From an uncultured virus (IMG/VR IMGVR_UViG_3300032116_000116) (taxonomy: Duplodnaviria > Heunggongvirae > Uroviricota > Caudoviricetes), in IMG/VR virus record IMGVR_UViG_3300032116_000116, positions 1-64,000 of that record: DNA of 64,000 nucleotides; one strand, 5' to 3'. Shown here piece after piece: positions 27,247 to 51,764 of the stretch (its first letter is position 1; each line of letters starts with the position of its first letter). Position numbers and translations under genes: made by a program. The notes beneath the pieces were generated by a model. That model had not been told where the DNA came from, searched no databases, and saw only the letters and a list, made by a program, of their open reading frames with translations.

Positions 27247-27685
27247 AGTTTTAATTTTTAATTGTTTCACAAATATACACCCTCAAAATGTATATTTCCA
27301 AATTTTTTTTTCCCTTTAACAAAACTTTAACATTTCGGGGGTGAAGGTTCGGGGTGACTTTTTTCGTGGCGAGAACCTACAAAGATACAAAATTATTTGT
27401 TAATAAAAAGTTAAAGTTTTCGTTAACAAAATTTTAAGAAAAAAAATTTGGAGGTGAACCCGTGAAGGTTTGGATTTTCTGTGGCGTGTAGGAAAAAAAC
27501 CACAAAGGTACGAAATTATTTGTTAATAAAAAGTTAAAGTTATTATGAGCCAGAGAAAAAGTTTTCCGGGTGATCCGGGGTTTACCCGTAAAATTCTTTA
27601 ACATAACATTAACATTCGGGTTGATTGTTTTGGGGTGTATAAGGTGTATATTTGTATATCGTTCACAAGTTAAAACTCTACTACT

Positions 27686-28060
27686 ATGTTAAAAAGAACT
27701 CTCACACTCGGACTTCATCATTGGACTGACAATGACTTAATCCTGAACTTTTATGTTACCAAATTCGGTACTCGGTACATTCATTTGAAAACCGAAGAAG
27801 AACTCTCCAAATTCATCGGTACAACTCCTTGTTCGTTTACCAAACAACAGATGAACTTCCGTTACCTTATGGGGTGTAAATCAAATGTCCTGACTGACTA
27901 CTCCAAACTTCAAAAGTTGGTGTTTGAAATGTTTGATGAAATCTCCTTCTACGAATTTCATCAAATCGTGAAAAAGATAGTTGGACAAGATGAATACGAA
28001 AGAAATAAATTCTTTGTGGAAAATGGATATAACCCTGAACGAATGATAATGATAAGTTAA
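27686..28060 (+). CDS. Early hypothetical protein
   Basis: Own promoter and terminator; no Ala. Confidence 0.75.
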   Translation: MLKRTLTLGLHHWTDNDLILNFYVTKFGTRYIHLKTEEELSKFIGTTPCSFTKQQMNFRYLMGCKSNVLTDYSKLQKLVFEMFDEISFYEFHQIVKKIVGQDEYERNKFFVENGYNPERMIMIS

Positions 28061-28080
28061 TCGGGTTGGAAACTGAAACG

Positions 28081-28110
28081 AAACCTCAACAGAAATGTTG
28101 GGGTTTTTTA
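28081..28110 (+). terminator. Intrinsic terminator; same sequence near 31558
   Basis: AAACCTCAACA-GAAA-TGTTGGGGTTT then T-tract. Confidence 0.8.
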
Positions 28111-28113
28111 TTT

Positions 28114-28312
28114 CCCACAGAACTCCGTGTTCACCAGATTCGCTGGTGGTAAATTTCTTTGGCTTGTAGAACCAGTTAGAAGATGTGGTTGGGGACACCG
28201 CATGCGAAAATATTTCTGTGGCGGTTGTCTTACATAATAGGGGTATTACAGGAGGTTACACGCCAAGGAAATTCCATAATCCCGGATCACCTGTCGTGTC
28301 ATCGTATTACAC
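28114..28312. repeat. Inverted-box element (compound copy)
   Basis: AGAACTCCGTGTTCACCAGATTCGCTGGT head; TTTCTTTGGC and TTTCTGTGGC...GCCAAGGAAA. Confidence 0.85.
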
Positions 28313-28391
28313 ATTCACAAAACTTTAACAAAATAAATTTGGATATAAGGGTATAAATTGGTTAACTTTGACGAAACAAACTTTCAAAGTT

Positions 28392-28673
28392 ATGTCTTAC
28401 ACAAAAGAAGAAATCAAAATGAACTTGTCAAGAAACCCTAAATGGATAGAAAGAGCGTTGGTTGTCTTACATAACCTCCAAACTACCGAAGAACAAATCA
28501 CAAACGAAACAATCAAAGAGAATGGGGTTGGTTTTAATTCATCGGATAGTCGGTATCTCTCCTATTGTGCGAAATGGATAAAGGGTGGTAATCACTTAAA
28601 CGAGAAACACCTCACTAAATGTGGTCAGAAACTCCCAAAGTATTGGAAACAAATACACTCAATGATTAAGTAA
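28392..28673 (+). CDS. Early hypothetical protein
   Basis: Start taken at MSYTKEEIK; QT.EEQ...NGVGF pattern. Confidence 0.75.
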   Translation: MSYTKEEIKMNLSRNPKWIERALVVLHNLQTTEEQITNETIKENGVGFNSSDSRYLSYCAKWIKGGNHLNEKHLTKCGQKLPKYWKQIHSMIK

Positions 28674-28727
28674 CTTCACACTCCACTCAAAACATTAAAC
28701 CTCCGATAGTATCGGGGGTTTTTTGTT

Positions 28728-28840
28728 AGAACTCCGTGTTCACCAGATTCGCTGGTAGATATTTTTTGTGGCGGATAGGTACAGATTAACCTACTCGCCA
28801 TGGAAAATTATCCTGATCGCAACAGCGGTTCACGGGGAAA
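28728..28840. repeat. Inverted-box element
   Basis: Same head as 28114; TTTTGTGGCG...CGCCATGGAAAA. Confidence 0.85.
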
Positions 28841-28925
28841 ATTCGTTAACAACATTTTAACAATAAAAATTTGGAAATATAAGGTATAATGTCGTATATT
28901 TGATAAACAATTAAAAACTACTACA

Positions 28926-29456: not shown

Positions 29457-29510
29457 TCACGAAATCGTAATACAGAAACCCTCGACAAAAGTCGGGGGTT
29501 TTTTGTTTTT

Positions 29511-29635
29511 CCACAGAACTCCGTGTTCACCAGATTCGCTGGTGGTGAATTTATGTGGCGGATCGTATTACAGATAAAGGTGGTATTACACGCCACATAA
29601 ATTTTTTGGTTCAGATCCAGGTTTCCACCAGTGAA
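29511..29635. repeat. Inverted-box element
   Basis: Perfect 13-bp inverted repeat AATTTATGTGGCG/CGCCACATAAATT, plus outer CTGGTGG/CCACCAG. Confidence 0.9.
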
Positions 29636-29719
29636 ACTCTTTAACAATAGATTAACAAAATAAATTTGGAATATAAGGTTTAATGATGTATATTTGTTAA
29701 ACAATTAAAACATACTACA

Positions 29720-30226: not shown

Positions 30227-30480
30227 TTGTAGTTTTAATTGTGAACGAAACCACTCCGAAAGGGGTGGTTTTTTTATTTGTGGTATTACACAAAACTTGA
30301 ATCGCGGTTCGAGCTGGGATTACACCTTTTTCTGTGGCGATCCGTATTACAGAAACCCACTCGCCATAAAAAAAGTTTACCAGGACGACAGGTATGAATA
30401 TGGTTTTGAAAAATAAATTTGGAATCAAAAAATATAAGTTGTATATTTGTGTATTATCTAACAAATTAAATTTATATCAA

Positions 30481-30822: not shown

Positions 30823-31075
30823 TGTTTGGTTTTAATTGTGAACGAAAAGTCCTCAACGAAAGTTGGGGATTTTTTTTGTCAAGTCACAGACCTCCGTGTT
30901 CACCAGATTCGCTGGTGGACATTTTTTGTGGCTGATCCTATTAGAGAAACCGACAAGCCATAGAAATTTCAGGATGGAAGGTGATCCGAATTCACCTTCA
31001 CAAAATTTTAACAAAAAAAATTTGGAATAAGTATGTATATGTTGTATATTTGTATAAATAATTAAAAAAAACATT

Positions 31076-31533: not shown

Positions 31534-31793
31534 TCCGTTCGTTCCCTCATAAAGACAAACCTCAACAGAAATGTTGGGGTTTTTTGTTTCTCCACAGAAC
31601 TCCGTGTTCACCATGCTCCCGGTATGTCATTTTCTGTGGCTGATCGTATTACAGGAAGTTAGACGCCAAAGAAATTTCCAACGACCCGGATCAGGAAATC
31701 GCCTGTCGGTTATCTTCACAAAGTTTTAACAAAATAAATTTGGAATATAAAGTATAATGATGTATATTTGTTAAACAATTAAAAACTACTACA

Positions 31794-32551: not shown

Positions 32552-32820
32552 TTTAGGTTTGGTTTTAATTGTGAAGAAATCCCTCAACGAAAGTTGGGGG
32601 ATTTTCTTTTGGAGGAACTTGAGTCGTGGTTCACCGTGTCTTCAGGGATTTTTTGTGGCTGATCGTATTCAGGTCAACCTCACAAGCCACGGAAATTTGG
32701 TAATCCGAATCACCTGTTTTCCTTCAGGAAATCCTTTCACAAATTTTTAACAAATTATTTTTGGAATAAAAATTTATATGGTGTATATTTGTTATATCAT
32801 TAACAATTAAAACAAACATT

Positions 32821-32988: not shown

Positions 32989-33258
32989 TGTTCTAAATAA
33001 ACCTATCAATAAAAATCCCTGACAATAGTCGGGGATTTTTTTTTCAAACACAAGAAGATGTGATCCGGATCAGCTCGACCGTGGATTTTCTCTGGCTCAG
33101 GTCAACCTACAAGCCAAAGAAAATTAATAATCCAGATCCCGTCCCTGAAATTTTAACAAAACTTTAACACAAAATCCTTTAACAACATTTTAACAATAAA
33201 AATTTGGAAATAGGTAGTAATAAGTTGTATATTTGTATAAACAATTAAAACAAATTTT

Positions 33259-33786: not shown

Positions 33787-34047
33787 GGTATTACACAACC
33801 GAAATATAAGGTAGTCATTTGACTACCTTTTTTTATGTCCATACCTATCCACGAGTCGTAGACAGAAGACGCGTCCGAAAATTTCTCTGGCGGATCGGTA
33901 TTCGTATTACAGGAGCCACGGAAATTTCAACATCTCAGTAGACATCTCCTCGTCATCGTTAAATTCATTATGAAAACATTAACAGAGATTTTTTGGAGAT
34001 ATAAGGTATTACATAGTATATTTGATAAACAATTAAAAACATATACT

Positions 34048-34765: not shown

Positions 34766-35028
34766 TCACTTACCTTTGATAACAAAGTCCTCAACGAAAG
34801 TTGGGGATTTTTTTTGTCCAAAACCCAAGAAGATGTGATCCGGATCAGCTCCATCCGGGATTTTACGTGGCAGATCGGTATTCGTATTACAGAAGCCACA
34901 AAAATTCCACTTCAGGACGACAGGTATGATTCTGATTTTTATTTTAACACTTTTTAACAAAAATAAATTTGGAGTGGAATTGTATATGTTGTATATTCGT
35001 GTATTGTTAAACAATTAAAACTAAACGT

Positions 35029-35678: not shown

Positions 35679-35987
35679 TTTTGGATTATCGTTTCATATT
35701 TACCCCCGATGTTTTTACATTGGGGGTTTTTGTTTCCCCGAACTCACCTTCACAGACAGCTCCATCGGGGAATTTATCTGGCGGATCGGTTTATGGACGC
35801 CACGGAAATTTCTGGATGGAAGGATGCTCCTTCAGAAAATAAAATTTGTTAATAGTTTTTAACAAAATAAATTTGGAATAGGGGTGTATAAGTTGTATAT
35901 TTGTGTTATGAAGAAACTAAAACCTTACATATTTCCGATTATATTGGTTATGTATGTTTTAATTAAAACATTCTTCAAACATTAATT

Positions 35988-36533: not shown

Positions 36534-36893
36534 TTTTTTGTCATAAATAAAATAACCCCCGATGTTTCTACATTGGGGGTTTTTGTTTTTGGGGTATTAC
36601 AACAAGATGTGTTGGGACGGTGAGCAGATCAGGGAATTTCTGTGGCTGATCGTATTACACTCGCCATAAAAAAAGTGGAAGACCAGAGCACCAGTCTTCA
36701 GGAAAAACTTGACTAATTAAAAAAAATGTATTACCTTTGTTTTGGTTTTTCACAGGATATTGGATTAATAACCCCCTTATGTTTCTACATTGAGGGGTTT
36801 TTTGTTTTAACAAAGGTTTAACAATAAATATTTGGAAATATAAGATTTTATTTCGTATATTTGTTCTATCAATAACAATTAAAAATTATTTTT

Positions 36894-37112
36894 ATGAAAA
36901 CAAAAATTAAGAACATTGTACTCGCAGTAGTTACTTACTTTATTGGTTTATTCATTGTATCGGTGTTTTTAAGTACATTTCAAACTCCCGATAATCTTAA
37001 CCTACCGACTTTTGGTTATGTGTTATTTTACCTTTATTTCTTCGGGGGAATGTATTTGGTGTATCGTATTTTCTTAAAGAAAAAGAAAGAAATTAAACCC
37101 GAAACATTTTAA
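36894..37112 (+). CDS. Small two-TM membrane protein
   Basis: Hydrophobic; promoter and terminator. Confidence 0.7.
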   Translation: MKTKIKNIVLAVVTYFIGLFIVSVFLSTFQTPDNLNLPTFGYVLFYLYFFGGMYLVYRIFLKKKKEIKPETF

Positions 37113-37238
37113 TCAAAAAGTAACTTAACCCCCGATATTTCGGGGGTTTTTGTTTTAACAAAATTTTAAGAAAATAAATTTGGATTGTGTTTGTATAATT
37201 TGTATATTTGATTATCATTAACAATTAAATTTACAATT

Positions 37239-37526
37239 ATGAAAAAGTTATTTGTAATATCATTTGTTGTTTTTCTTTTCAGTTGTTCAGTTCAAAAAGA
37301 GTGTAATGTGAAATTTAACCTTTCAAATTTAGATATTGACTTAAAAGATAGTGTTAATATAAAAGTAGAAAGAATTGTTTATACATATCTCGGAAATTTT
37401 GTTAGGGGTACTAATAATGTTTGGTATCGTCATCGTGGAATAGTTGATTTTAAGGTTGGTGATAGTGTTGTAGTTTTTAATGAGTTCAAAACTTTACCTC
37501 CTTGTCCTCGTGAGTGGGGGTTTTAA
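37239..37526 (+). CDS. Small lipoprotein
   Basis: MKKLFVISFVVFLFSC lipobox. Confidence 0.7.
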   Translation: MKKLFVISFVVFLFSCSVQKECNVKFNLSNLDIDLKDSVNIKVERIVYTYLGNFVRGTNNVWYRHRGIVDFKVGDSVVVFNEFKTLPPCPREWGF

Positions 37527-37607
37527 GAAAACATTAACAAAATAAATTTGGAATATAAAATTTATTGTTGTATATTTGTGTAACATTAACAATTAAAACA
37601 AAACACA

Positions 37608-38210
37608 ATGGAAGCGATTAACACAATTACCAAAGGAAACTACAAATTAGAAATTTTTCAAGAGGATAGTCCCGAAAGTCCAAGAAGTTGGGATAATTTG
37701 GGAACAATGATTTGTTTTCACGGAAGATACAATTTAGGGGATAAACACGACTATAATCATAGAGATTATTCGGGTTGGGAAGAACAGAAAAAAGAAATTT
37801 CTAAACAAGAGAATGTGTGTGTTATCTTACCCTTGTATCTTTACGACCATAGTGGGATAACAATGAACACAACAGGTTTCAGTTGTGGTTGGGATAGTGG
37901 TCAGGTTGGTTGGATAGTAGTATCAAAGGAAAAAGTGAAAAGTGAATACGGAGTAAAAAGAATTACCAAAGATATTATTGAGAAAGTTACCAATGTGTTG
38001 AAAGGTGAAGTGGAAACATACGACCAATATCTTACGGGTGATGTTTACGGGTATAGAGTATCAAAGATTGAAGTGTGTGATAAGGGTTGTGAACACGATG
38101 AAGAAGTAGATAGTTGTTGGGGTTATTATGGAGAGGAAAGTGTGGAGGCGGAAGGTAAAAGGATATTGGAGTATTACATTAAGGAAGAAGAAAAGAGTGT
38201 TTGTTCATAG
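37608..38210 (+). CDS. Conserved phage/plasmid hypothetical protein
   Basis: SPRSWDNLGT...LPLYLYDHSG...WDSGQVG...SCWGYYG. Confidence 0.75.
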   Translation: MEAINTITKGNYKLEIFQEDSPESPRSWDNLGTMICFHGRYNLGDKHDYNHRDYSGWEEQKKEISKQENVCVILPLYLYDHSGITMNTTGFSCGWDSGQVGWIVVSKEKVKSEYGVKRITKDIIEKVTNVLKGEVETYDQYLTGDVYGYRVSKIEVCDKGCEHDEEVDSCWGYYGEESVEAEGKRILEYYIKEEEKSVCS

Positions 38211-40556: not shown

Positions 40557-40631
40557 TAGGGGATAAAAATAAATTTGGTTTTTAATTAAAATAGTTTTAT
40601 CTTTGTTCTTTAATCATTAAAATTTATAATT

Positions 40632-41465
40632 ATGAAATTCGCGTCAACCGACAATCTTAATTGGACAGTTCGTCAGGAGCCTGTTCAAACCGAAAGTGGT
40701 ATCGTAATTCCTGGACAACTTGCGATAGTTCGTAACGATACGAATGTTCCTTTGTCAATTATGGCTGATGGTTATCAACCGTATCAAAATCACGAATTGG
40801 TTGAACTACTTGAAAGGGTATCAAACCAAACCGGTATGGAAATTAAAAAATCGGGGTTATTCGGGGACGGAGAGAAGGTGTTTATTCAGTTGAAGTCAAA
40901 CGACCTTAAACTCGGTAATGATAGGGTTGAAGGATATTTGACAGGTATCAATTCCTTTGATGGTTCAACATCACTCGCATTCGGACCCAGTAATGTTACT
41001 ATCAGTTGTACCAACTCGTTCTTCGCCGCGTTTCGTGGTCTTAACACAAAGGTTCGTCATACAAAAAATATGGTTGTTCGTATTGACGACATTTGTAGAA
41101 GTTTAATGGGTGTAGTTGAGGAAGAAAAGAAAATGTTTGATAACATTGTGAAGTTGTCGGAAACTCGTGTCGGAACAAAAAATGTTGATGATGTATTACG
41201 GACATTATTCAACATTGATAAAAGTGTTAATCTCAAAGATATTGAGGCGATATCAACCGTAACTCAAAATAAAATATCTCGTTTCTATGTTGATTTGAAC
41301 GGAGAAATGAAGGAGAAGGGAGATAATCTTTGGGGGTTGTTTAGTGGAGTAACTAAATACACAACTCACTCAATGAGTAAGGAAGACAATACCGAAAAGA
41401 AAATGTTTGGTGTGTACGGAAATCGTGAAAGGAAAATCTTTAACGACTTGGTTGAATTGGTATAA
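40632..41465 (+). CDS. DUF932/DUF945-like phage/plasmid protein
   Basis: LNWTV...YQPYQN...G....GEKVF...NSFDGS...CTN...RHT...LWGL...VT.Y..H. Confidence 0.8.
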   Translation: MKFASTDNLNWTVRQEPVQTESGIVIPGQLAIVRNDTNVPLSIMADGYQPYQNHELVELLERVSNQTGMEIKKSGLFGDGEKVFIQLKSNDLKLGNDRVEGYLTGINSFDGSTSLAFGPSNVTISCTNSFFAAFRGLNTKVRHTKNMVVRIDDICRSLMGVVEEEKKMFDNIVKLSETRVGTKNVDDVLRTLFNIDKSVNLKDIEAISTVTQNKISRFYVDLNGEMKEKGDNLWGLFSGVTKYTTHSMSKEDNTEKKMFGVYGNRERKIFNDLVELV

Positions 41466-41724
41466 CCCTATAAGTGAATCGTGTATAACCCCAGCAAAAA
41501 GCTGGGGTTTTTTGTTGCTTTTCACCAGCCGATCGCAACAGCGCAACAGGTGGGATTTTCTGTGGCAAGAAAATTACAGGGGAAACGACTCGCCACAGAA
41601 ATTTCAGATGACGCCGGGCTAAAAAGTTCGTAGCCCAGATCATAAAACACATTAACAAAAGATTAGCACAAATTATTTGGAAATAGAACTATAATAGTTG
41701 TATATTTGTATAAATTAAAACATT

Positions 41725-41910
41725 ATGAAAAAAGTAATCACACTATTATCAGTTGTTGTCTTATTGACAAGTTGTTCAACACAATATCAAACAACAAGTT
41801 ACAATTCGGAAAAAAGTTATACCTTTAAGAGAGGTGGTGTTCGGTATAAAATAACCGACACTTACACAAGAAAAGTTGAAACCGATACATTAACAATTAA
41901 AAAGAAATAA
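41725..41910 (+). CDS. Mini-lipoprotein
   Basis: MKKVITLLSVVVLLTSC lipobox. Confidence 0.7.
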   Translation: MKKVITLLSVVVLLTSCSTQYQTTSYNSEKSYTFKRGGVRYKITDTYTRKVETDTLTIKKK

Positions 41911-41911
41911 T

Positions 41912-42106
41912 ATGAAGTTTGATGTAATTTCCCCCGATGGTTTTTCAATTCATTTTTCCGACACTTATAGTAATAAGAAAGAAGCAAAAAAAGCTTTTGA
42001 GAAGTGGAAGAAGAATTACGAAAGACAAGGATATTATAGTTCGGTAAACTATGGTAGAATACCTTTGAACGAATTACACAACTACATTAAAATTGTTAAA
42101 CTATGA
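41912..42106 (+). CDS. Hypothetical protein
   Basis: 64 aa, operon-packed. Confidence 0.65.
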   Translation: MKFDVISPDGFSIHFSDTYSNKKEAKKAFEKWKKNYERQGYYSSVNYGRIPLNELHNYIKIVKL

Positions 42107-42564
42107 ATTTAGACAAAGCTGAGAAACTCACACTATCTTTGATGCACAAACACAATTTACGTGGTTGGAGTTTTAAGTGGGATAATTCATTGAGGAGGTT
42201 CGGTTGTTGTAGTCAAGGTAGAAAGTATATTGGGTTGTCAAGGAAATTGGTTGAGGTAAATAATGTGGAACAAGTTAAGGACACAATACTGCACGAAATT
42301 GCACACGCACTTGCGGGACCTGGTGTAGGACACGGGCAAAAGTGGAAAGATATTTGTGTTCAGATTGGTGCAAAACCCGAAAGATGTTATGATAGTGACG
42401 ACACAAACACACCCGAAATGAAGTATTACGCGGTATGTGGTGCTTGTGGTAGAAAACACGAAAAGGCAAGATTAAAACTAAAGCATGTTCGTAGGTCGTG
42501 TTTATGTCAAAGTGGTAAGGATTGGAACAATAGAGTTTTATTAGAATTTCAAACAAGATATTAA
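42103..42564 (+). CDS. SprT-like zinc metalloprotease
   Basis: TILHEIAH, HG..WK, CGAC. Confidence 0.85.
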   Translation: MNLDKAEKLTLSLMHKHNLRGWSFKWDNSLRRFGCCSQGRKYIGLSRKLVEVNNVEQVKDTILHEIAHALAGPGVGHGQKWKDICVQIGAKPERCYDSDDTNTPEMKYYAVCGACGRKHEKARLKLKHVRRSCLCQSGKDWNNRVLLEFQTRY

Positions 42565-42569
42565 TTCGT

Positions 42570-42770
42570 ATGACACCAGAACAACAAGTAAAAGAAATTC
42601 AGTTGAAGGCACAATATAGTGTACTATCGGAACTATCGGAATGTTTTGGTAAAGGTAGTAGACACGAAGCGGCAGTTAAGATTAATAAAACGATGAATGA
42701 AATTTTATACAAGTTAGAACTATTAAATTATGAGTACACACAACAGGCGAGGTCATACACGAAAGGTTAA
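42570..42770 (+). CDS. Hypothetical protein
   Basis: 66 aa. Confidence 0.55.
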   Translation: MTPEQQVKEIQLKAQYSVLSELSECFGKGSRHEAAVKINKTMNEILYKLELLNYEYTQQARSYTKG

Positions 42771-43048
42771 AGTTAAAGGAGCCGTTAAGTGTATAAAGAT
42801 TAAACCGACAAAAGTTAAAAAGAAAAAGTAACCCAGAGAAATCTGGGTTTTTTGTTGCTTTTCACCAGCTGATCGCAGCGCAAACGCAGCTCGGATTTTC
42901 TGTGGCAGGATCGACACACTTGCCACAGAATATTTTCCTGATCCCGGACATCTTTTTCTTCAGAAATCCTTTAACAAAAGATTAGCACAAATTATTTGGA
43001 AATAGAACTATAATAGTTGTATATTTGTCTAAACAAAAACAAATCACA

Positions 43049-43270
43049 ATGGCTATCAAAAGTAAAAACTCAAAGAAATCAAAACTTGAAATTGACTTAA
43101 CTGGTCCAGATGGTAACGCCTTCGTTCTTATCGGTATCGCGGGTAACTTATCAAAACAATTAGGTTTGGATAAAAGTAAAATACAATCCGAAATGATGAA
43201 AGGTGATTATGAAAACTTGATAAAAGTTTTTGACAAACATTTTGGAAAATTCGTAACTTTATATCGTTAA
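43049..43270 (+). CDS. Conserved phage hypothetical protein
   Basis: IDLTGPDGNAF.L.G...GDY; start taken at MAIK. Confidence 0.7.
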   Translation: MAIKSKNSKKSKLEIDLTGPDGNAFVLIGIAGNLSKQLGLDKSKIQSEMMKGDYENLIKVFDKHFGKFVTLYR

Positions 43271-43284
43271 TAAAACTATTTCAA

Positions 43285-43611
43285 ATGAGAGTAACAAATT
43301 TAACAGGGGCTATTGTCCTAATAAAAATACAACACAAGGTTGATGTTGTTCCTTCAAATATCAAAGGGTTTAAGTGGCATATTCCAGAAATGGATGATGA
43401 TGGTGGTGTCCATATTGAAACTGATGAAGACCTTATTAAATTATCAAATGAAATTTGTGATTTTGATAAATTGATTGATGAAGTCATTGAACAAATTAAA
43501 CACGACATCAATGTAAGTGAGGATTTTACCGCAATTGACGAACTATTAAGAACGGTTCCAGTTATCAACTTAATAAATTATTTACCCGAAACAATACAAC
43601 AAGGAAAATGA
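43285..43611 (+). CDS. Hypothetical protein
   Basis: 108 aa. Confidence 0.6.
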   Translation: MRVTNLTGAIVLIKIQHKVDVVPSNIKGFKWHIPEMDDDGGVHIETDEDLIKLSNEICDFDKLIDEVIEQIKHDINVSEDFTAIDELLRTVPVINLINYLPETIQQGK

Positions 43612-43820
43612 GAACAATAACAATTCATATCATTGATAGAGATAGTTCACGAACTATGAGTGAAAGTATCAGGGTTGATGGTGTTAAACCGATAGACCTT
43701 GAAAACAATATTGTTAAATTACTTTCCGATGTTCCTTTCCGTAAATACTATATGGAAACTGAAACAAGTGATGAATTAACAAAGGAAGAATTGGAAGTTA
43801 TTGAAAGGATCATTAACTAA
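43608..43820 (+). CDS. Hypothetical protein
   Basis: 70 aa, translationally coupled. Confidence 0.6.
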   Translation: MRTITIHIIDRDSSRTMSESIRVDGVKPIDLENNIVKLLSDVPFRKYYMETETSDELTKEELEVIERIIN

Positions 43821-43881
43821 ATTTTAACAAAAATTATTTGGAAATAGAAAGTATTACATTGTATATTTGTAAAAAAATCGT

Positions 43882-44013
43882 ATGACACTACAAGAATTAA
43901 AAGAACAACTACAAGAAGATTTAATCTCACACTTGGAGGAATTAATCTCACAAGAAGATTTAGACATCGTTTGTAATATAGTAATCAATAATGTTAATCA
44001 ATTAAAACAATAA
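43882..44013 (+). CDS. Small hypothetical protein (43 aa)
   Basis: Own translation MTLQELKEQLQEDL...; after a promoter. Confidence 0.55.
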   Translation: MTLQELKEQLQEDLISHLEELISQEDLDIVCNIVINNVNQLKQ

Positions 44014-44015
44014 CA

Positions 44016-44564
44016 ATGGGAGCAACAGATTTCAGAACAACAAAAAGAGGTTGGTCAATGTCCGAAGCGTATGACACCGCAGTTGAATATGCGAGAGACG
44101 AATATGGAAACGATGGTTACAACGGAACAATATCCACAACTCGTGGGGTTATTGATAAGACCTCAATGTTTAAGTCATCAAAACTTTCTATTGATGAATT
44201 TATTAACAAACATATTGATAGTTGTCAGAAGTGGGGTTCGGCTTGGGGAGTATGTATTGAAGAACCGACACAAAATAAATCTAAGATAAAATCTAAGGTT
44301 ACAAACATTGTAAGTAAGGGAACGAAGAAATGGGAGTTGGTTTATGATGTGATTGTTCGTGGAGATAGTGTTAAGTCATTCAATAGTAAGAACGATGCGG
44401 TTAAACATGGTCGTGATTTGGTTGAGAAGAGTAAAGGAAGAGTATCAATAGAAATGAGGAAGAAACTTGTTAATGGTAACACAAGGGTTGCGGAGATCGA
44501 ATATAAAACCGATGGAAAAGAAAAAGAGGGTAAGTATGTTTTCTTCGGAATTGCAGCATGTTAA
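44016..44564 (+). CDS. Conserved phage hypothetical protein
   Basis: MGA..F...EYGNDGYNGTIS...FFGIAAC. Confidence 0.75.
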   Translation: MGATDFRTTKRGWSMSEAYDTAVEYARDEYGNDGYNGTISTTRGVIDKTSMFKSSKLSIDEFINKHIDSCQKWGSAWGVCIEEPTQNKSKIKSKVTNIVSKGTKKWELVYDVIVRGDSVKSFNSKNDAVKHGRDLVEKSKGRVSIEMRKKLVNGNTRVAEIEYKTDGKEKEGKYVFFGIAAC

Positions 44565-44667
44565 CAAAACTTTAAGAAAATAAATTTGGAAAACTAATAT
44601 AATAGTTATATCTTTGTTACTCATTACTAATCTAACTCGGGGACAGGAGTTCTGAACAAATTATCTT

Positions 44668-45411
44668 ATGAATAAGTTTCATGGAAAAAAAGTAGGAGAA
44701 ATCTTTGAGACAAAAGATTATTCAATTTTCAAATTCAGAGAGGACAATCGTCCAATCATTCCAAACCATGTTAAGAAGTTAGCGAAGAGAATGTCTGAAC
44801 GTGGTTGGTTACCAACATCAGTTGTCACTATTAATGGAAGTGGTGATATTATTGATGGACAAAATCGTGTGACCGCAGCGATGAGTGTTGGTTGTCCGAT
44901 TCGTTACAAAGTAGTGAAAGGAGCAGGAAGTGATGAAATGACGGAAATGAATACACTACAAAAGAATTGGTCTCCGTTTGACCACTTACACAAGTTCGTT
45001 GTGAAGGGTAATAAGAATTATGTTGTATTCAATAATTTCATTACCGACTATCCAATGTATAAGTACACCGAAGTCGCGATGTTTCTCAACAACTCAATGT
45101 CAAGTGTGAAGAGAGATACTTTTGAAAGTGGTGAATATGTTGTAAAGAACGAGAAGAAAGCTCGTGAGTGGGCTAACAACATTCTTGAACTCAAACCTTA
45201 CTTTGAGAAGTATTACAACAAGTCAATCTTTGTGAGGGCGATGGTGAAGATTATGTCAAATAAGAAAGACTTTGTTTTTGAAGAGTTTTTACACAAAGTA
45301 AAGTTGAGACCAATGAAGTTAGTTCCGTGTGGAACGGTGGAACAATATGTGGAAATGATTGAGGGTATCTACAACTACATGAGAAAGGATAAAGTGAATT
45401 TAAGGTTTTGA
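44668..45411 (+). CDS. ParB/Srx N-terminal-domain protein
   Basis: NR.I...HV..L...IIDGQNR..A. Confidence 0.75.
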   Translation: MNKFHGKKVGEIFETKDYSIFKFREDNRPIIPNHVKKLAKRMSERGWLPTSVVTINGSGDIIDGQNRVTAAMSVGCPIRYKVVKGAGSDEMTEMNTLQKNWSPFDHLHKFVVKGNKNYVVFNNFITDYPMYKYTEVAMFLNNSMSSVKRDTFESGEYVVKNEKKAREWANNILELKPYFEKYYNKSIFVRAMVKIMSNKKDFVFEEFLHKVKLRPMKLVPCGTVEQYVEMIEGIYNYMRKDKVNLRF

Positions 45412-45597
45412 GTTAGATAGTAAGTGTGAACAAAGACCACTCCGAAAGGGGTGGTTTTTTTTGTTACGAACTCAGAATCTGCGGTCCTGAAGACGACGGG
45501 GAAATTTTCTGTGGCAGGATCAAACTCTTTAACAAAACATTATGAAAATAAATTTGGAAATAGAAAGTATTATATTGTATATTTGAAAAAAAACATT

Positions 45598-46008
45598 ATG
45601 ATTGAAATGATTAAATCGGAATTGAAGTGGAGAGGAAAAGAAACCTACTCAATAGAAGAAATTATTGAAGTCATTGAGAAGTATAATAAAAAAGAAGAAA
45701 CTCATAGAGTTGAAAGTTGTGGGTTTGTTGCCGATATGGAAACCAGACAAATAACTATTGACGATAAAAAACACAACCTACCAAAAAAAGAATTTTTGAT
45801 TATTCATTACCTTATGGAAAATAAAAACAAGGTATTGAATAGAGATAAGATACTAAATAAAATTTGGGAAGATGATGTGATTGTAATAAACAGAACTATT
45901 GATGTTCACATCAGGAGAATTAGAAATAAATTTCCAACAATTCCAATTAGAACAATTAAGGGAGTTGGATATACTTGGAGTGATAGAGAGACTTTAACAA
46001 ATGTTTAA
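45598..46008 (+). CDS. OmpR/PhoB-type winged-helix DNA-binding protein without receiver domain
   Basis: L..KEF....YL..N..KVL.R..IL..IW......RTIDVHIRRIR.K...I.TI.GVGY. Confidence 0.9.
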   Translation: MIEMIKSELKWRGKETYSIEEIIEVIEKYNKKEETHRVESCGFVADMETRQITIDDKKHNLPKKEFLIIHYLMENKNKVLNRDKILNKIWEDDVIVINRTIDVHIRRIRNKFPTIPIRTIKGVGYTWSDRETLTNV

Positions 46009-46064
46009 CATAAATTATTTGGAGGTATAATGTTTTAAGTTGTATATTTGTAAAAATTAAAATT

Positions 46065-46295
46065 ATGGTAACTTTACACGAAGAAAAATTTATGGACTAT
46101 AAAATCGGTTTAGCCGGTTCGTTCAAACAATCACTTTACGAAACCTTTTTCAAAGGAGATACGGAGAACAGAAAGAAGTTAATGTCTGTTTTTCCCGAAC
46201 TTGAAGTCGCTCAAAGATACGCCTCCGAAAGTGGTTATTGGAAAGGACTTGTGGAGAGATATAATAAACAATACAACACAAACTATAACCCATAA
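46065..46295 (+). CDS. Hypothetical protein
   Basis: GSF...L.....D..N...L...FPE; promoter upstream. Confidence 0.7.
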   Translation: MVTLHEEKFMDYKIGLAGSFKQSLYETFFKGDTENRKKLMSVFPELEVAQRYASESGYWKGLVERYNKQYNTNYNP

Positions 46296-46301
46296 AATAA
46301 T

Positions 46302-46460
46302 ATGCCAACAAGAGAACAAACAGACAAAGTTTTCACTGAATTGATAAGTTTATATGACATCGCCGATGAACTTGAAAACAATGGCGAAGAAGAAAAATCA
46401 ATCGAAATGAGAATTAAACTCAACATTATCGGACAATTTATTCAATCATTAATAAAATAA
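46302..46460 (+). CDS. Small hypothetical protein (52 aa)
   Basis: Own translation; operon-packed. Confidence 0.55.
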   Translation: MPTREQTDKVFTELISLYDIADELENNGEEEKSIEMRIKLNIIGQFIQSLIK

Positions 46461-46461
46461 A

Positions 46462-46659
46462 ATGAAATCACAACAAGTTTTTATTGTAATGTACAATGAC
46501 CGATATGGTAACGGAGACCAGAAGAAAATAGAGGTGGTATTAAAAGATGAAAAAGATTTTAAGAAGTGGTTGAAGAACCATAACTACGATAGGGATGCAG
46601 AACCCGAAACAAAAGAAGAATTTGATTTAATTCCAGTTAACCTTTTAACTTTTGATTAA
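46462..46659 (+). CDS. Hypothetical protein
   Basis: 65 aa. Confidence 0.6.
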   Translation: MKSQQVFIVMYNDRYGNGDQKKIEVVLKDEKDFKKWLKNHNYDRDAEPETKEEFDLIPVNLLTFD

Positions 46660-46696
46660 CGATTATTATATTATCTTTACAAATAAAAAAAATTGT

Positions 46697-46960
46697 ATGA
46701 CAACACAACAATTCAACGAGAAGTACAAAGATTACTTGGAGGAAGGACACTATGGTTTAGCCATAGGTGCTGGAGAATTTGTAGAATGGTTAGATAAAAA
46801 GTTTGAGGACTTTGTTAAGAAACCCGGTTTTAGATTTACACAGATTAAAGCGAAATTCGGTTATGGTAGATTTTACGCCGAAGGTTTAACAAGTGATGAA
46901 GTTCGTGAAGTGGAACAGAGAATTACAGATTTACATTCAGGTACAAAATTAGAATTTTAA
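46697..46960 (+). CDS. Hypothetical protein
   Basis: QIKAKFG..RFY; start taken at MTTQQ. Confidence 0.65.
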   Translation: MTTQQFNEKYKDYLEEGHYGLAIGAGEFVEWLDKKFEDFVKKPGFRFTQIKAKFGYGRFYAEGLTSDEVREVEQRITDLHSGTKLEF

Positions 46961-46962
46961 TT

Positions 46963-47205
46963 ATGGCAAGAGTATCAAAATTAGCACAAAGACAAACCTA
47001 TTCAAACGGACATCAAATTTGTGTTGGATTGACTGGTGATATTGGTTATATATCTATTGAAGATAATAACCTTTATCCCGAAGGTGATAGTCGAGCAGAT
47101 AGAAGGGATATGAATTTTAATAGGATAATGGTTCCCGTTATGACAAGGGAAGACCTTAAAGATTTACAGACCGCTATTGGTGAAGTATTAAAAAACTCAA
47201 AATAA
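46963..47205 (+). CDS. Hypothetical protein
   Basis: 80 aa. Confidence 0.6.
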   Translation: MARVSKLAQRQTYSNGHQICVGLTGDIGYISIEDNNLYPEGDSRADRRDMNFNRIMVPVMTREDLKDLQTAIGEVLKNSK

Positions 47206-47489
47206 TGTCATACACAATAGATAAAATAATTCCAGTCAAATACGAATGGGATGATAAATGGACGGTAACCGCAGATCTTCGTGGACTTGAAACCTTTGAG
47301 AACTGCGAAAGTAATTATGATGTGGTTGAAAGATTAAAAGATAATAATGTCCTTTCAAGTAAAACTAGTGAGGATAGTGAATATTGTCAATTCTTTGCAT
47401 ATTTCAGTACAAAGAAAGCGGCAGAGAACTTTATCAAAAGATTAGGAACTTATATTGAAAAAAGAAAAAAATTAATATCATCTTTGTAA
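47205..47489 (+). CDS. Hypothetical protein
   Basis: 94 aa. Confidence 0.65.
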   Translation: MSYTIDKIIPVKYEWDDKWTVTADLRGLETFENCESNYDVVERLKDNNVLSSKTSEDSEYCQFFAYFSTKKAAENFIKRLGTYIEKRKKLISSL

Positions 47490-47490
47490 T

Positions 47491-47721
47491 ATGGAAATTT
47501 TAACATTTAGAGAATGGAGTGAGAACTTTGTAAAAGTTATCTTTGATTTAGAGGGTGGAGTAGAAATCAAATCATTTAACAAAACAATTCTTAAAGTAAA
47601 AACCCCAAAGATTGTTAATGGTTTGTTAGAAGAACAAAGTAAAATGTTGTTGAAACATTACACCGATAACTTTGATAAAATACAAAGTCAGTATCAAGAA
47701 TTATTAAACGAAGTTATATGA
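47491..47721 (+). CDS. Hypothetical protein
   Basis: 76 aa. Confidence 0.6.
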   Translation: MEILTFREWSENFVKVIFDLEGGVEIKSFNKTILKVKTPKIVNGLLEEQSKMLLKHYTDNFDKIQSQYQELLNEVI

Positions 47722-48053
47722 CCGCACACCACATAGCAAAAGTTGTTCAAAGTCAATTCGATAAAGTAGATTTCGACGCCATCATTGATAAGTGGAAACA
47801 CATTAAAAGAGAGGATTGTGGTAGAGTATCAGATGAATGGGTTAATACAAGGATTGATGATAAACAATACTATAAGTGGATGAGGGCGTGTTCCTTATTA
47901 GAGGAACATATTAAAAGGAACTTTGAAACCTTTGAAGAAACTGAATTGGTTTATACTTGGGCGAAAGACCTTTGTATTCAAAAGAACAATGAATTAAATA
48001 GGTGGCGTCAGTTTGGTGCGTATCAAACATTTTCTCAATTTAGAAAGAGATAA
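47718..48053 (+). CDS. Hypothetical protein
   Basis: 111 aa; terminator follows. Confidence 0.65.
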   Translation: MTAHHIAKVVQSQFDKVDFDAIIDKWKHIKREDCGRVSDEWVNTRIDDKQYYKWMRACSLLEEHIKRNFETFEETELVYTWAKDLCIQKNNELNRWRQFGAYQTFSQFRKR

Positions 48054-48327
48054 TATGAGAAACCTAATCTGTACCTTTTTAACCCCGACATAATGTTGGG
48101 GTTTTTTGTTGCTTGAACTTTGCTGGTCCTGTGCGCAACAGGTGAGATATTCTGTGGCAGACTAAACACACTCGCCACAGAAATTTCAGATGACCGGGGT
48201 CAGGACAGTTTCAGGGTAAAACTATTTATATCTGTTAAGAAAATTTTAACAAAATAAATTTGGAAATACAAAGAAATAAGTTGTATATTTGTAATGTCAT
48301 TTAATTATTAACTCAAAACTTTTTCAA

Positions 48328-48597: not shown

Positions 48598-48623
48598 TTT
48601 ATTCACACACTAAATCAACTCAA

Positions 48624-49028
48624 ATGGCAAATCCGTTAATTCATTCTAAATCCAGTGTTAAACGCTGGGGTGGAAAGGTAGAAGATTATTTACCTATTCA
48701 CGAACTTATTGATAGTCCAAAAATGACTATGAATAATAATAGTGCGAGGTTACTTACTCACAATACCTGGTTCGCATACCACATTGTTCCGAAAATCTTT
48801 GGTTACAACATTGTTAATTCTGACGGAAAGTCCGTTGATGTTGTAGATATTGCGATGTTACATATTGCAGAAGATTTCCGAATGAAGTTTGTACCGACAC
48901 CACAGGACTATCTTAAACATTTAGAAGTCCAACCCTGGATGAATAATGGAGTTAAGCCCGTTGATAATCCCGAAGCGTACGAAATTGTTAAAAACTTAAA
49001 TCAAAAATTACACGATTATGCAAACTAA
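48624..49028 (+). CDS. DUF6915-like protein
   Basis: MANP..HS.SSV.RWGG..EDY..IH...DS.K...H...HI.ED...PT..DY. Confidence 0.65.
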   Translation: MANPLIHSKSSVKRWGGKVEDYLPIHELIDSPKMTMNNNSARLLTHNTWFAYHIVPKIFGYNIVNSDGKSVDVVDIAMLHIAEDFRMKFVPTPQDYLKHLEVQPWMNNGVKPVDNPEAYEIVKNLNQKLHDYAN

Positions 49029-49698
49029 TGAAGCAGTAAAACTCTGGAAGGAGTTAGGTATTACACACGCAAATATGGAGTTCAGTTGTGGTGGAGATAG
49101 TATGAATGACTACCACTTTACTTTCTACAAGAAAAACGATAGTAAGAAAAAGAATGTCCCCGAAGAAATTGAGGTTAATAGTCCCGAATTGGAAAGTTAC
49201 TTTGACAAAGAAGTGTTTGATGAAGTTGAGTTTTATGTAAACTCTGACGGACACTACATTGGGGAGCACGGAAATGTTTATATTGAATTAGATGATAGTG
49301 ATGAAGATGAAGAAGAACATACTTTCATTTATTCAAAAAGTGCCAAAAGTGAGTGGTCGGAGAGAATTGAAGAAACAATGGAAATCAAATTATCAAAGAA
49401 GATGTCTAAATTTGTTTCGGAGTATGTTAGTAACATTAACGGAGAAGAAGGGAATTGTACTATCAATTTCAAAAAAGATTTCATAATGTCTGACGAACAA
49501 GAAAAGTTGGTGGGAGAATTGGAAGAAATTGTATTACAAGAAACCGCAGACTTTGAGCCTTCCTATGATGAAGGGGAGAAAGAAGATTACTATACTTTCA
49601 CAACAAATGACGGAGATGATAGAGAAGAATTAACTATCAAAGATGATAAGTTGTTGGTATCTGTTGGAACTTCGTTTATCATTTACAAAGAAGATTAA
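49018..49698 (+). CDS. Acidic DUF6878-like protein
   Basis: GI......FSCGGDS motif; very D/E-rich. Confidence 0.6.
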   Translation: MQTNEAVKLWKELGITHANMEFSCGGDSMNDYHFTFYKKNDSKKKNVPEEIEVNSPELESYFDKEVFDEVEFYVNSDGHYIGEHGNVYIELDDSDEDEEEHTFIYSKSAKSEWSERIEETMEIKLSKKMSKFVSEYVSNINGEEGNCTINFKKDFIMSDEQEKLVGELEEIVLQETADFEPSYDEGEKEDYYTFTTNDGDDREELTIKDDKLLVSVGTSFIIYKED

Positions 49699-49726
49699 AT
49701 TATTAACAAATTAAATTAAATCAGTT

Positions 49727-50398
49727 ATGCAAATCGTTATCAATAATTTACAATTTCCGTATGACATTGGTTGTCGTATTTTGAAAGTGAAACACAAAGA
49801 TTGTCCTTTCAGTCAGTTGGAAGATATTTGGGAAGATATTACCCCGATTACTTTCAAAGAGATAGCCCAATTAGAGAACTTGGAACAACGCCGTGTGGCT
49901 ATGTTGAACTATGGGTTAGATAGATTGGTCAAAGAGATTAAACCCGAATTGATTGATAAGAAAACATTGAAGAAAACAACAACTTGGGTTAGTCAAGACG
50001 GACAACTTGTTACCAAAAAATTCAATGACACTTATGAACTTTACAAAGTTAATGGGGAAGTTTTCGGTAAGGCTCGTAATTCTTGGTCAAAACCTGATGA
50101 TTGTTACTATGTAAAGTGTAAGGACACAAGTACCGACAGAGAGTATTTCATTTGGGTTGATATGAAAAGTGTGGCAAACACAAATGGTCAGGGTTGGAAT
50201 TGGGATATTAAAAAGGTCAATGCAATTCAGGCAATTGCTTGGACTATTCAAACGGACATTCCCGAAGGTTGTATTGAGAAGATTGTAAGACAGGGAGATT
50301 GTGTGTTGATTAAACCGATAGGGAAGAAAGTAAAGTCGGAAAGTACAAGACACTTAACGGAAAGTGAGTACAAAAATCTGTTGGTCGCTGAGAGTTAG
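49727..50398 (+). CDS. Conserved phage hypothetical protein
   Basis: NLEQRRV...C.DTST.REY...A..AIAWT...RQGD. Confidence 0.7.
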   Translation: MQIVINNLQFPYDIGCRILKVKHKDCPFSQLEDIWEDITPITFKEIAQLENLEQRRVAMLNYGLDRLVKEIKPELIDKKTLKKTTTWVSQDGQLVTKKFNDTYELYKVNGEVFGKARNSWSKPDDCYYVKCKDTSTDREYFIWVDMKSVANTNGQGWNWDIKKVNAIQAIAWTIQTDIPEGCIEKIVRQGDCVLIKPIGKKVKSESTRHLTESEYKNLLVAES

Positions 50399-50632
50399 TA
50401 GTTTTTGACAAATGAAAGGGGGTACAATTAGTACCCCTTTTTTTATGCACTTTTTGTGCACTCGATCTGCATATTAACAGGTGAGATTTTCTGTGGCGGA
50501 TCAACTATACTCGCCACAGAAAATTCTTGGTTCAGATCCTGAAATTTTTAGATATAATATCTTAACTAAACTTTAACGAAAATAAATTTGGAATCAAAAT
50601 ATATAAGTTGTATATTTGTAAAAATTAAAATT

Positions 50633-51397
50633 ATGATTTACACAACTAAAGCTCAAGCAAAAAAATTAACGGGTATCGGTTACCTGGGGTCGGTTAACTT
50701 AACTACCAAACATCAGAAGGCGTACAAGTACAATGAACTTACTTATAGTTTATACCTCGCACCCGCAAAGTCAAGTGGTTATGAGGTTTGTCCTATGAGA
50801 AGTGAAGAATGTACATTGCTATGTTTGAACGAATCGGGAATGAATAAAATGACACAGAAGGTAAAGGGTGATGTTATTAATGAATCTAGAATTAAAAAAA
50901 CGAAATTATTCTTTGAACACAGGGAATTTTTTGTTAATTGGATGATAGATGAAATATACACCGCAAAGAAAAAGGCAGATAAACTCGGTCACAAGTTCAG
51001 TGTTCGTTTAAACAATACATCAGATATAACCCCCGAAAGTTTTTATGTGACATATAAAGGAGAAGTGAGAAATGTATTACAGATTTTCCCCGATGTTAAA
51101 TTTTACGATTACACGAAAGTTCCGAAACGAATTGAATTGTTAAAGAAGTACAATAACTACGATTTAACATTTTCATTTAGTGGATATAACTTTCCCGATT
51201 GTATTAGTATGTTGAATAATGATGTTAGAGTGGCGGTCGTATTTAGAAAAGAATTACCCGAAACTTTCTGGGGTCGTAAAGTTATTGACGGGGATGAATA
51301 CGATATGAGATACTACGATGAAAAAAATGTTATTGTAGGTTTGAAATATAAAAGTGTTAGAAACAAGTTAAAGGATGATTACAAGTTCGTTGTTTAG
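50633..51397 (+). CDS. Gp88-like phage protein
   Basis: LYLAP...CP....C...CL...RLN..SD...FYDYTK...Y.LTFS...DGD..D.R..D....VGLK. Confidence 0.75.
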   Translation: MIYTTKAQAKKLTGIGYLGSVNLTTKHQKAYKYNELTYSLYLAPAKSSGYEVCPMRSEECTLLCLNESGMNKMTQKVKGDVINESRIKKTKLFFEHREFFVNWMIDEIYTAKKKADKLGHKFSVRLNNTSDITPESFYVTYKGEVRNVLQIFPDVKFYDYTKVPKRIELLKKYNNYDLTFSFSGYNFPDCISMLNNDVRVAVVFRKELPETFWGRKVIDGDEYDMRYYDEKNVIVGLKYKSVRNKLKDDYKFVV

Positions 51398-51764
51398 TAG
51401 TTTTTGTTTTGATAGAGAACCCACCAGTAAAATGGTGGGTTTTTTATTGCTGTTACCAGAGCAGATCGCAGCGCAAAGCACAGTGGAATTTCTGTGGCAG
51501 AATAGTTTTATTGATTATCAATGAGTTATGAAAATAGCAAAAGTTGCAAAAGTTGCAGCAACACCAGAGCAAGTTGCCAGATTCAGAGCTATGGATTTTC
51601 TGTGGCAGACATTTGTATTACGCCACAGAATATTTTTACCGTGCCGGGCTGGGGTCGTGATCAAAAATATTTTTGCAAAATTTTAACAAAATATATTTGG
51701 ATTATAACTTTATCCGTTGTATATTTGTGATGTCATTAATTATTAAACTCTAAATTTTATTAAC

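Follow-up and report, generated by a model that had tools for sequence, protein, structure and literature searches.

In the first 64 kb (hereafter the window) of a 77,752-bp record of an uncultured virus (IMG/VR IMGVR_UViG_3300032116_000116; G000), the tetranucleotide GATC is concentrated in 22 intergenic elements and scarce in the small early genes between them. We read this, with evenly balanced confidence, as two overlapping things: the early transcription units avoid restriction sites, and the GATC in the spacers of the elements is a separate functional signal and not a decoy. The record corresponds, bar one base, to positions 114,204-191,955 of a 286,785-bp viral contig (G003), and this single-base difference leaves no usable polymorphism.

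The elements lie in an early-gene cluster (27270-52260, + strand) in which about 31 promoters of the Bacteroidota sigma-A type (TTTGG-N19-TAnnTTTG) point rightward and one points leftward. The Bacteroidota promoter pattern TTTG[GA]-N16-22-TAnnTTTG gave 31 rightward matches within 27.3-52.4 kb, with TTAACAAAAnTTTAACAAAATAAATTTGGA as their consensus, and the divergent leftward promoter was found at 27270-27302. This early block, about 25 kb out of at least 287 kb, is the only promoter cluster of its kind across the whole of G003; its promoters drive approximately 55 small genes, and it contains 35 terminator-like sites versus 9.9 expected. Given the Bacteroidota-type promoters, the block would depend on the host RNA polymerase, and no phage RNA polymerase was detected among the 211 open reading frames (ORFs) of at least 110 aa scanned in G003, 13 ORFs crossing the borders of 20-kb pieces having been skipped. 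A hairpin promoter of the N4 type, serving a virion RNA polymerase, was considered and dropped, no giant or multisubunit phage RNA polymerase having been found.

We defined an element as the DNA from the upstream stop codon through the end of the -7 box of the promoter, which yielded 22 elements of 174 to 346 nt (5,498 bp). They have a common layout: an intrinsic terminator comes first, a GC-rich spacer of about 120 nt is next, and the -33/-7 promoter follows a direct-repeat box (TTAACA-N5-TTAACA). Within the spacer, a variable module A is followed by an inverted repeat, which we call hairpin B, and by a variable module C often ending in CTTCAG. Twenty-two of the approximately 31 promoters are preceded by this full cassette, the other nine or so being located directly behind a gene or a terminator, and a pattern search recovered hairpin B in 20 of the 22 elements.

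All elements are on the + strand. The leftmost one, 27303-27648, is an atypical divergent control region with 1 GATC and two copies of a repeat of about 35 nt, and shows no hairpin B by pattern. It is followed (position of hairpin B and number of GATC sites in brackets) by 28061-28370 (28215; 1), 28674-28902 (28765; 1), 29457-29696 (29552; 2), 30227-30449 (30331; 1), 30823-31052 (30925; 2), 31534-31770 (31633; 2), 32552-32791 (32652; 1), 32989-33235 (33089; 3, including TGATCCGGATCA), 33787-34024 (33884; 1), 34766-35001 (34864; 3), 35679-35903 (35775; 1), 36534-36863 (36639; 2), which has a double terminator, 38211-38441 (38315; 1), 39042-39283 (39152; 3), 40011-40242 (40105; 3), 41466-41708 (41559; 2) and 42771-43027 (42899; 3). 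The short element 45412-45585 retains only the left arm of hairpin B and has 1 GATC. The last three are 48054-48291 (48151; 0), 50399-50618 (50490; 3) and 51398-51727 (51599 by pattern, with a lone left-arm copy near 51493; 2). The AT-rich repeat of about 35 nt at the left edge (27381-27415 and 27504-27538) has an inverted copy at 46644-46678.

A preliminary description of this DNA had stated that GATC is concentrated in the elements and scarce between them, and our counts agree. The elements contain 39 sites; base composition predicts 18.2, and Markov models of first and second order predict 12.9 and 18.7, respectively. Early DNA outside the elements (19,420 bp within 27,303-52,220) has only 5 sites (39970, 43808, 44495, 47274 and 51775), versus 58.0, 56.9 and 55.1 expected under the same three models. 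The remaining 52.8 kb of the record harbor 152 sites for 151-189 expected; GATC is common again from 53,642, as had been noted for the DNA after about 53.6 kb, and its density is normal in the late DNA of G003. The three example strings quoted in that description (33061, 38275 and 40072) are all present.

In order to correct for coding constraints, we shuffled synonymous codons in the 55 early coding sequences (CDS; 17.8 kb), keeping proteins and codon usage (300 shuffles). GATC occurred 5 times versus 39.8 in the shuffles (z -6.7), and it was accompanied by CATG (6 versus 40.8), TCGA (11 versus 56.5), ACGT (3 versus 48.3), CCGG (4 versus 14.6), AGCT (4 versus 17.4), CTAG (6 versus 17.8), TGCA (13 versus 28.4), GCGC (0 versus 4.6) and GGCC (0 versus 3.4), while TTAA and AATT were not depleted. 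In the 86 CDS outside the block, GATC was found 141 times versus 143.1, and the remaining palindromes were just mildly low. When all 256 tetramers were ranked by depletion in early CDS, palindromes (ACGT, TCGA, GATC, CATG and TATA) took the first five places; outside the block, the most depleted tetramers were non-palindromic. Taken together, the shuffles and the tetramer ranking point to a real purge, which acts on the DNA itself and does not extend beyond the early units. The depletion of early CDS thus withstands correction for composition and codons.

The preliminary description had further reported that many restriction-modification (R-M) motifs are stacked in the elements. This proved right for GATC, for GGTGA (22 versus 6.5-9.2) and for CTTCAG/CTGAAG (9 versus 1.4-2.1), the latter two sitting inside recurring sub-motifs, as read from the element sequences, and looking like conserved parts of these. 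It did not apply to CCGG (13 versus 5.7-11.9), AGCT (12 versus 6.8-18.2), GCGC (8 versus 2.8-5.7) and GCAGC (5 versus 1.4-3.7), which are near or modestly over expectation, nor to GGTCC (3 versus 3.7-6.6), TCGA (7 versus 14-18) and TGCA (6 versus 9-18), which are at or below it. Since the remaining listed motifs are not clearly over composition, the stacking of many motifs reduces to GATC. The elements are also depleted in ACGT (2), CATG (4), CTAG (0) and GGCC (0).

These counts bear on the proposal, made in the same description, that the elements are protein-shielded decoy or bait arrays for host restriction enzymes, here taken to include shielding by structure and to soak up or blunt these enzymes. 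The persistence in spacers of GATC, CCGG, AGCT and GCGC, all purged from the genes, would make sense if spacer sites could not be cut; in addition, hairpins abound in the spacers, and a candidate binder, the ParB-like protein described below, is encoded nearby. However, a decoy calls for many R-M types enriched over composition, and we found GATC and two non-palindromic sub-motifs only, with ACGT, CATG, CTAG and GGCC being avoided in the elements too. The ParB-like protein is an early product and would thus be missing at entry unless packaged in the virion. Moreover, as detailed below, one relative has a GATC excess without any gene purge, and the elements of other lineages are GATC-free. Restriction enzymes, being catalysts, are in general not titrated by just a few dozen sites. 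The decoy idea is unsupported by any measurement made here, and we regard it as the least probable of the explanations weighed.

We scanned metagenome contigs with the promoter-box pattern, which returned 101 stretches, many of them carrying clusters of early-type promoters, and the element architecture recurs. For every locus, the 175 nt upstream of each promoter (-200 to -25) were taken as the spacer zone, an arbitrary choice but identical for all. The relatives are mostly fragments; L154 is the window's phage and is not counted apart, L197 and L213 are one contig, and L168 and L197 are close relatives. GATC counts inside and outside the zones were 35/7 for the window's phage, 17/5 for L174, 13/3 for L168, 9/0 for L197, 19/6 for L210 and 5/0 for L163. 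At these six loci, GATC ranked first or second of the 24 ACGT permutations in the zones and was below the permutation median outside them. Most genes that L174, L168, L197, L210, L163 and a further relative, G007, share with the window's phage are about 64-77% identical to it (up to 86% in one L174 stretch). The spacer sequence around GATC is not alignable between loci, and GATC is found at several different places of the modules. Because it recurs at non-homologous places in unalignable modules, we take the spacer GATC to be functional.

G007 is a complete 310-kb relative with 16 elements and a ParB-like protein that is 67% identical; its 99-bp end overlap reflects a circular assembly only, the contigs being without physical ends. 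The zones of G007 contain 15 GATC in 3,350 bp versus a permutation median of 4.5 (rank 3), while its genes are unpurged, with 47 GATC outside the zones versus a median of 48.5. The GATC excess is thus separable from the gene purge and does not stem from a relaxation of anti-restriction selection, contrary to the neutral alternative offered earlier, namely, that shielding relaxes selection on spacer sites.

The purge also varies among relatives. GATC is absent from both genes and spacers in L201/L115, L116, L140, L152, L166, L175, L177, L178, L183, L189 and L209, and lies largely outside the zones in L162 (2/10) and L198 (0/15). The purged set is lineage-specific, since L140, L152, L175 and L183 for example have no GATC or CATG but normal ACGT and TCGA, as would be expected from hosts with different R-M repertoires. 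The purge thus behaves like restriction avoidance, being targeted at palindromes, variable between related phages and confined to early DNA read by the host polymerase; on these grounds, the restriction link suggested in the preliminary description is retained, and we infer restriction as the purging agent.

Neutral hitch-hiking could also account for spacer GATC. A methylase of the phage's own would make GATC harmless, a GATC-bearing spacer variant would have spread by gene conversion or duplication, and the genes would be GATC-poor through swapping of early genes among lineages, some of them intolerant of GATC. Copies within one genome indeed share arms and GATC position while genomes differ, a sign of concerted evolution, and some lineages are GATC-free throughout. 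Contigs from a lake metagenome also hint, weakly, at cassette exchange: in DNA run X9 (window 32.5-52.4 kb), contigs join distant elements, such as 37579 to 48235, and one joins 36584 to 40096 with the sequence of another spacer in between. The joints are in or beside elements, with sides of just 21-49 nt, and may represent co-occurring relatives differing by cassette gain or loss at elements; gene content varies between relatives having cassettes in common. On the other hand, at 7 loci, which represent 6 lineages when the close relatives L168 and L197 are counted together, spacer GATC is among the top 3 of 24 words, in surroundings that are unalignable and at different module places. In addition, a neutral purge should, by a rough estimate, have largely decayed at such divergence, and the genes still have 0-7 GATC. 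We therefore consider both parts of this account, the spread of the spacers and the swapping of the genes, to be rather unlikely.

We looked for a partner of the spacer GATC. The sites have no extended consensus, their flanks are just weakly biased (C at -2 in 54/98), and they are frequently paired, 5-6 nt apart; the idea that GATC forms the centre of longer palindromes was rejected on flank analysis of 98 sites. G003 encodes, outside the window, a Dam-family (D12) adenine methylase (PF02086, 73 bits, DPPY motif), and G007 encodes two, these being both whole contigs with GATC-bearing spacers. The lack of an extended consensus, together with Dam-family genes in both contigs, makes a GATC-specific writer or reader the simplest partner, and the Dam-family methylase possibly reads or writes spacer GATC; methylation sensing, the second idea put forward in the preliminary description, may apply. 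In G003, the gene is directly beside a same-strand gene for a NusG-like protein (L128:10091-11475; G003 230.1-231.5 kb), whose product could work at the numerous terminators of the early block.

A bare 4-mer without extended consensus, frequently in pairs 5-6 nt apart, would also suit a phage or host enzyme that nicks or cuts at GATC. Programmed breaks between early units could then serve replication priming, recombination or cassette exchange, and the genes would avoid GATC so that templates stay intact. The cassettes resemble the recombinogenic PeSLs of T4-like phages discussed below (PMC4122927), and site-specific nicks are known in T5-like phages, according to the part of PMC10644984 consulted. 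We found, however, no DpnII-, MutH- or Sau3AI-like family among the 211 G003 ORFs (E<=1e-5; 13 border ORFs and those of <110 aa excluded), and late DNA, with its normal GATC density, would be attacked too. Such an enzyme is very improbable in our view, with regard to both the breaks and their proposed uses.

We then considered hairpin B, whose arms in the window's phage are TTTCTGTGGC / GCCACAGAAA, 10-13 nt long and 15-39 nt apart, with GATC opening 12 of the 20 loops after 0-2 bases. In 82 instances collected from 13 loci, some of which are overlapping pieces or close relatives, arm positions were Watson-Crick paired in 840 of 984 cases. The arms are uniform inside a lineage and differ between lineages by complementary changes, giving the types CTGTGGC, CTGTCGC, GTTTCGC, GTTTGGC, GGTTGGC and GTCTAACTGC. 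They read TTTCTGTCGCA / TGCGACAGAAA in L174, TTGTTTCGCAC / GTGCGAAACAA in L168 and L197, TTGTTTGGC / GCCAAACAA in L210, L201 and L163, TTGGTTGGCG / CGCCAACCAA in L198, and AAGTCTAACTGC / GCAGTTAGACTT in L140, L175, L183 and L209. Uniformity within a genome suggests either a co-evolving sequence-specific reader or concerted evolution, while the variable length of the centre (3-45 nt) argues against a simple dimer operator. Only some copies are contiguous palindromes, among them 6 from L168/L197 whose centre is ACGT or ACAT; the palindrome in its L168/L197 form (TTGTTTCGCACGTGCGAAACAA) resembles canonical parS. The exact palindrome of the window, searched in viral contigs, returned 51 stretches; 34 had no nearby promoter and look like chance matches, and the 17 real ones came from 4 contigs, all identical to the window's phage.

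The complementary arm changes would also be expected if the spacers worked at the RNA level. They could belong to a small RNA or, where transcription runs past the terminator, to a structured 3' tail of the upstream mRNA, and GATC would then reflect RNA structure or protein binding. The 3-45-nt loop, in which the motif GTAT[TG]AC occurs in 33 of the 82 instances, fits this view, as do arm mismatches on the sense strand, where G-T exceeds A-C (33 versus 17), and an RNA-library contig covering a spacer. But the G-T bias is mild, the RNA evidence is a single low-depth contig, and no Rfam family was matched. The spacers, moreover, sit 3' of strong terminators and 5' of the next promoter, and within-genome arm uniformity points to a sequence-specific reader over structure alone. 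A role as RNA therefore appears about as improbable as programmed nicking.

A candidate for such a reader is encoded within the early block. The gene at 44668-45411 (+ strand) specifies a ParB/KorB/Noc-like protein with a conserved DGQ[NH]R motif, a candidate binder of the hairpin-B palindromes. It is present in most relatives and is among the best-conserved early genes (30 tblastn rows over the relatives' loci, several being overlapping pieces of one contig; 34-84% identity). It matched phrog_12305 (1.1e-28) but not Pfam ParB at E<=0.001. The structure model (mean pLDDT 80) gave 6 Foldseek matches at E<=0.001, all of them ParB-CTPase chains, with KorB and Noc lower in the list; the fold match is weak, with a best E of 2.5e-4 at TM 0.31 (probability 1.0; TM range 0.26-0.33). 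The identity of this protein does not track arm type, since L210 (35%) and L201 (84%) have the same arms, and KorB-like control is thus an analogy and not a matter of membership.

The direct repeats TTAACA-N5-TTAACA, with an 11-bp period, abut the -33 box at nearly all of the 31 early promoters, which span 28.3-51.7 kb, and exact copies in the 77.7-kb record number 8 on the + strand and 0 on the - strand. Their arrangement is, we presume, a Pho-box-like layout. A stand-alone PhoB/OmpR-type winged-helix gene at 45598-46008 (+ strand) is a candidate for their reader; its product is an effector domain alone, without a receiver domain, and has Bacteroidota PhoB as its best NCBIfam match.

The window's phage is a T4-like jumbo phage of at least 287 kb, judging from the genes of G003 (completeness 86% by CheckV). 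These include Portal_T4, Terminase_6N, Peptidase_S77 (prohead protease), GPW_gp25, gp32, T4_baseplate and tail sheath genes, together with a DnaB-like helicase, a primase and a family-B polymerase, as well as ribosomal protein bS21. Metagenomes from freshwater and lakes contain its DNA. Huge phages encoding bS21 have freshwater Bacteroidetes as predicted hosts, and the window's phage fits this group because of its bS21 gene and its freshwater and lake occurrence, as far as the consulted part of PMC9723584 describes it. Neither megablast nor blastn gave a close DNA match in the phage collection, and a scan revealed no tRNA genes; gene calls are ORF-based.

In the reading that we favour, the early block of this phage of freshwater Bacteroidota depends on host RNA polymerase and is punctuated by about 22 terminator-promoter cassettes, of which the elements form the non-coding portions. 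Selection against restriction sites would have purged the early units of GC-containing 4-bp palindromes and would act on DNA that has to be expressed before phage counter-defences exist. Spacer GATC would be distinct from the purge, a trait positively maintained within the element family and most likely a signal that is read or written, for example, by the Dam-family methylase, and it might mark parental versus replicated DNA at early promoters.

Several points weigh against this reading. Should spacer sites be open to cutting, purging the genes alone would protect little; the 39 GATC, 13 CCGG, 12 AGCT and 8 GCGC left in the spacers are unexplained by plain avoidance. The T4-type terminase suggests headful, permuted packaging, and the early block would then have no fixed first-entry position. 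Lineages running the elements without any GATC indicate that it is dispensable for core function. As the elements are one repeat family, the 39 GATC are not 39 independent events, and 73 of 98 sites lack a complementary flanking pair and hence flank symmetry. With regard to the Dam-family protein of G003, it scores under the NCBIfam Dam cut-off (TIGR00571, 57 versus 114.85 bits) and had no sequence match in the PDB, and a Dam-family gene need not be accompanied by a purge, as G007 has two of them and its genes are unpurged. Finally, an RNA-library contig (X18; 32634-32906) covers a spacer and its promoter, so that spacers are not proven to be non-transcribed, even if DNA carry-over in the library is possible; the contigs from these libraries (X18-X20) are short, shallow and possibly DNA, and stretches without RNA cover are uninformative.

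Another possibility is that the early block is built to survive cutting, in the form of site-free promoter-gene-terminator units separated by non-transcribed spacers in which sites are tolerated or, for GATC, kept. Were this the case, takeover and anti-defence genes could be expressed even after a genome, doomed or first to enter, had been cut into restriction fragments. The cell would thereby be disarmed to the benefit of sister phages or of the remaining genome, as with cooperating anti-CRISPR phages, and the hairpin-rich spacers would form the fragment ends. We consider this improbable, and keep to site avoidance plus a separate GATC signal.

The cassettes can be compared with several known systems. 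GATC clusters in control DNA are linked to Dam in P1 pac, Mu mom and oriC/SeqA. The likeness lies in GATC being over-represented in non-coding control DNA of a genome with a Dam-family methylase, the difference in some 20 dispersed clusters upstream of early promoters; we know of no SeqA or MutH in the Bacteroidota hosts of such a phage. PeSLs are composite terminator/early-promoter cassettes between small variable genes in the hyperplastic regions of T4-like myoviruses and are proposed to mediate modular gene shuffling (PMC4122927, consulted in part). The window's phage likewise has T4-type core genes and terminator-plus-promoter cassettes between small genes. In contrast to PeSLs, an insert of about 120 nt, GC-rich, parts terminator from promoter in 22 cassettes and holds a lineage-specific palindrome and GATC; there is also a direct-repeat box, and the promoters are of the Bacteroidota -33/-7 type. 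Neither a motif purge nor a GATC excess figures in the consulted portion of the published account of PeSLs (PMC4122927).

With regard to the purge, the nearest parallel is T5/BF23, in which, according to the excerpts consulted, Type I and Type II systems act only with sites in the first-step-transfer region (PMC10644984; bioRxiv 10.1101/866236). The T7-like Murciaviruses behave likewise, being restricted only via the first-exposed (leading) region and tolerating sites elsewhere, as stated in the available part of PMC12455610. Here, too, the purge is confined to one region, the early block, after composition and codon correction, and the depleted words are R-M-type palindromes in a set that varies by lineage. 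Differences are the T4-type terminase, the simultaneous purge of many 4-bp palindromes and the exemption of the non-coding spacers; the likeness drawn here is one of site depletion and not of entry order. As for the palindromes, KorB of plasmid RK2 acts as a sliding clamp and can silence promoters from afar (PMC11790492, seen in part). A ParB-family candidate combined with many palindromic sites upstream of promoters recalls KorB-OB and ParB-parS, but the half-sites are here mostly 3-45 nt apart instead of forming contiguous palindromes of fixed length.

Other features of these genomes deserve mention. Recognizable early families are DUF932, SprT-like, GP88, DUF6915, ParB-like and the stand-alone PhoB/OmpR-type winged-helix domain. 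Relatives of the GP88-family protein (38 loci) were examined as element carriers and mostly lack elements, and L139, which has a 37% relative of the neighbouring 480-aa gene, showed no synteny with the early block. Small early genes at 31076, 32821, 34348 and 41725 have near-identical lipoprotein-like signal peptides, MKK...(S/T)SC, and their products could be surface or exclusion proteins. Directly right of the block is a predicted C-5 cytosine DNA methyltransferase gene (54907-55824, + strand); to the left of the block are genes for an HNH/homing-type endonuclease and a CCA-adding enzyme (tRNA nucleotidyltransferase), at 23865-24914 and 12409-13587. Two neighbouring paralogous tail-protein genes of about 625 aa (1986-5737; phrog_17517, one with an F5/8 type C domain) sit in a 3.9-kb GATC-free stretch (2060-5921) outside the early block. 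In G007, seven direct repeats of about 36-45 nt with a 65-66-nt period form a CRISPR-array-like structure (L055:14807-15245). G003 encodes a 385-aa thymidylate-synthase-family protein with a large insertion (L127:4368-5522), a dCMP deaminase (L119:17938-18399) and several glycosyltransferase and sugar-nucleotide enzymes; the thymidylate-synthase-family protein, deaminase and glycosyltransferases raise the possibility of hypermodified DNA bases, which would alter how restriction acts on this phage.

Overall, the window's phage provides a quantified case in which restriction-site avoidance would be limited to the early units of a phage genome, those read by the host polymerase. This would extend the "first-exposed region" principle of T5 and T7 to uncultured jumbo phages of Bacteroidota, and it implies that whole-genome site counts mislead when R-M sensitivity is predicted. 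From the comparison of lineages there also emerges a family of conserved regulatory spacers, which combine palindromes specific to each lineage with a repeat resembling a PhoB box and with recurrent GATC. Their candidate partners, the ParB/KorB-like protein and the PhoB-type domain, are encoded in the early block itself. The separation in G007 of spacer GATC excess from the purge is a lead to a control of early transcription in phages that may be linked to methylation.

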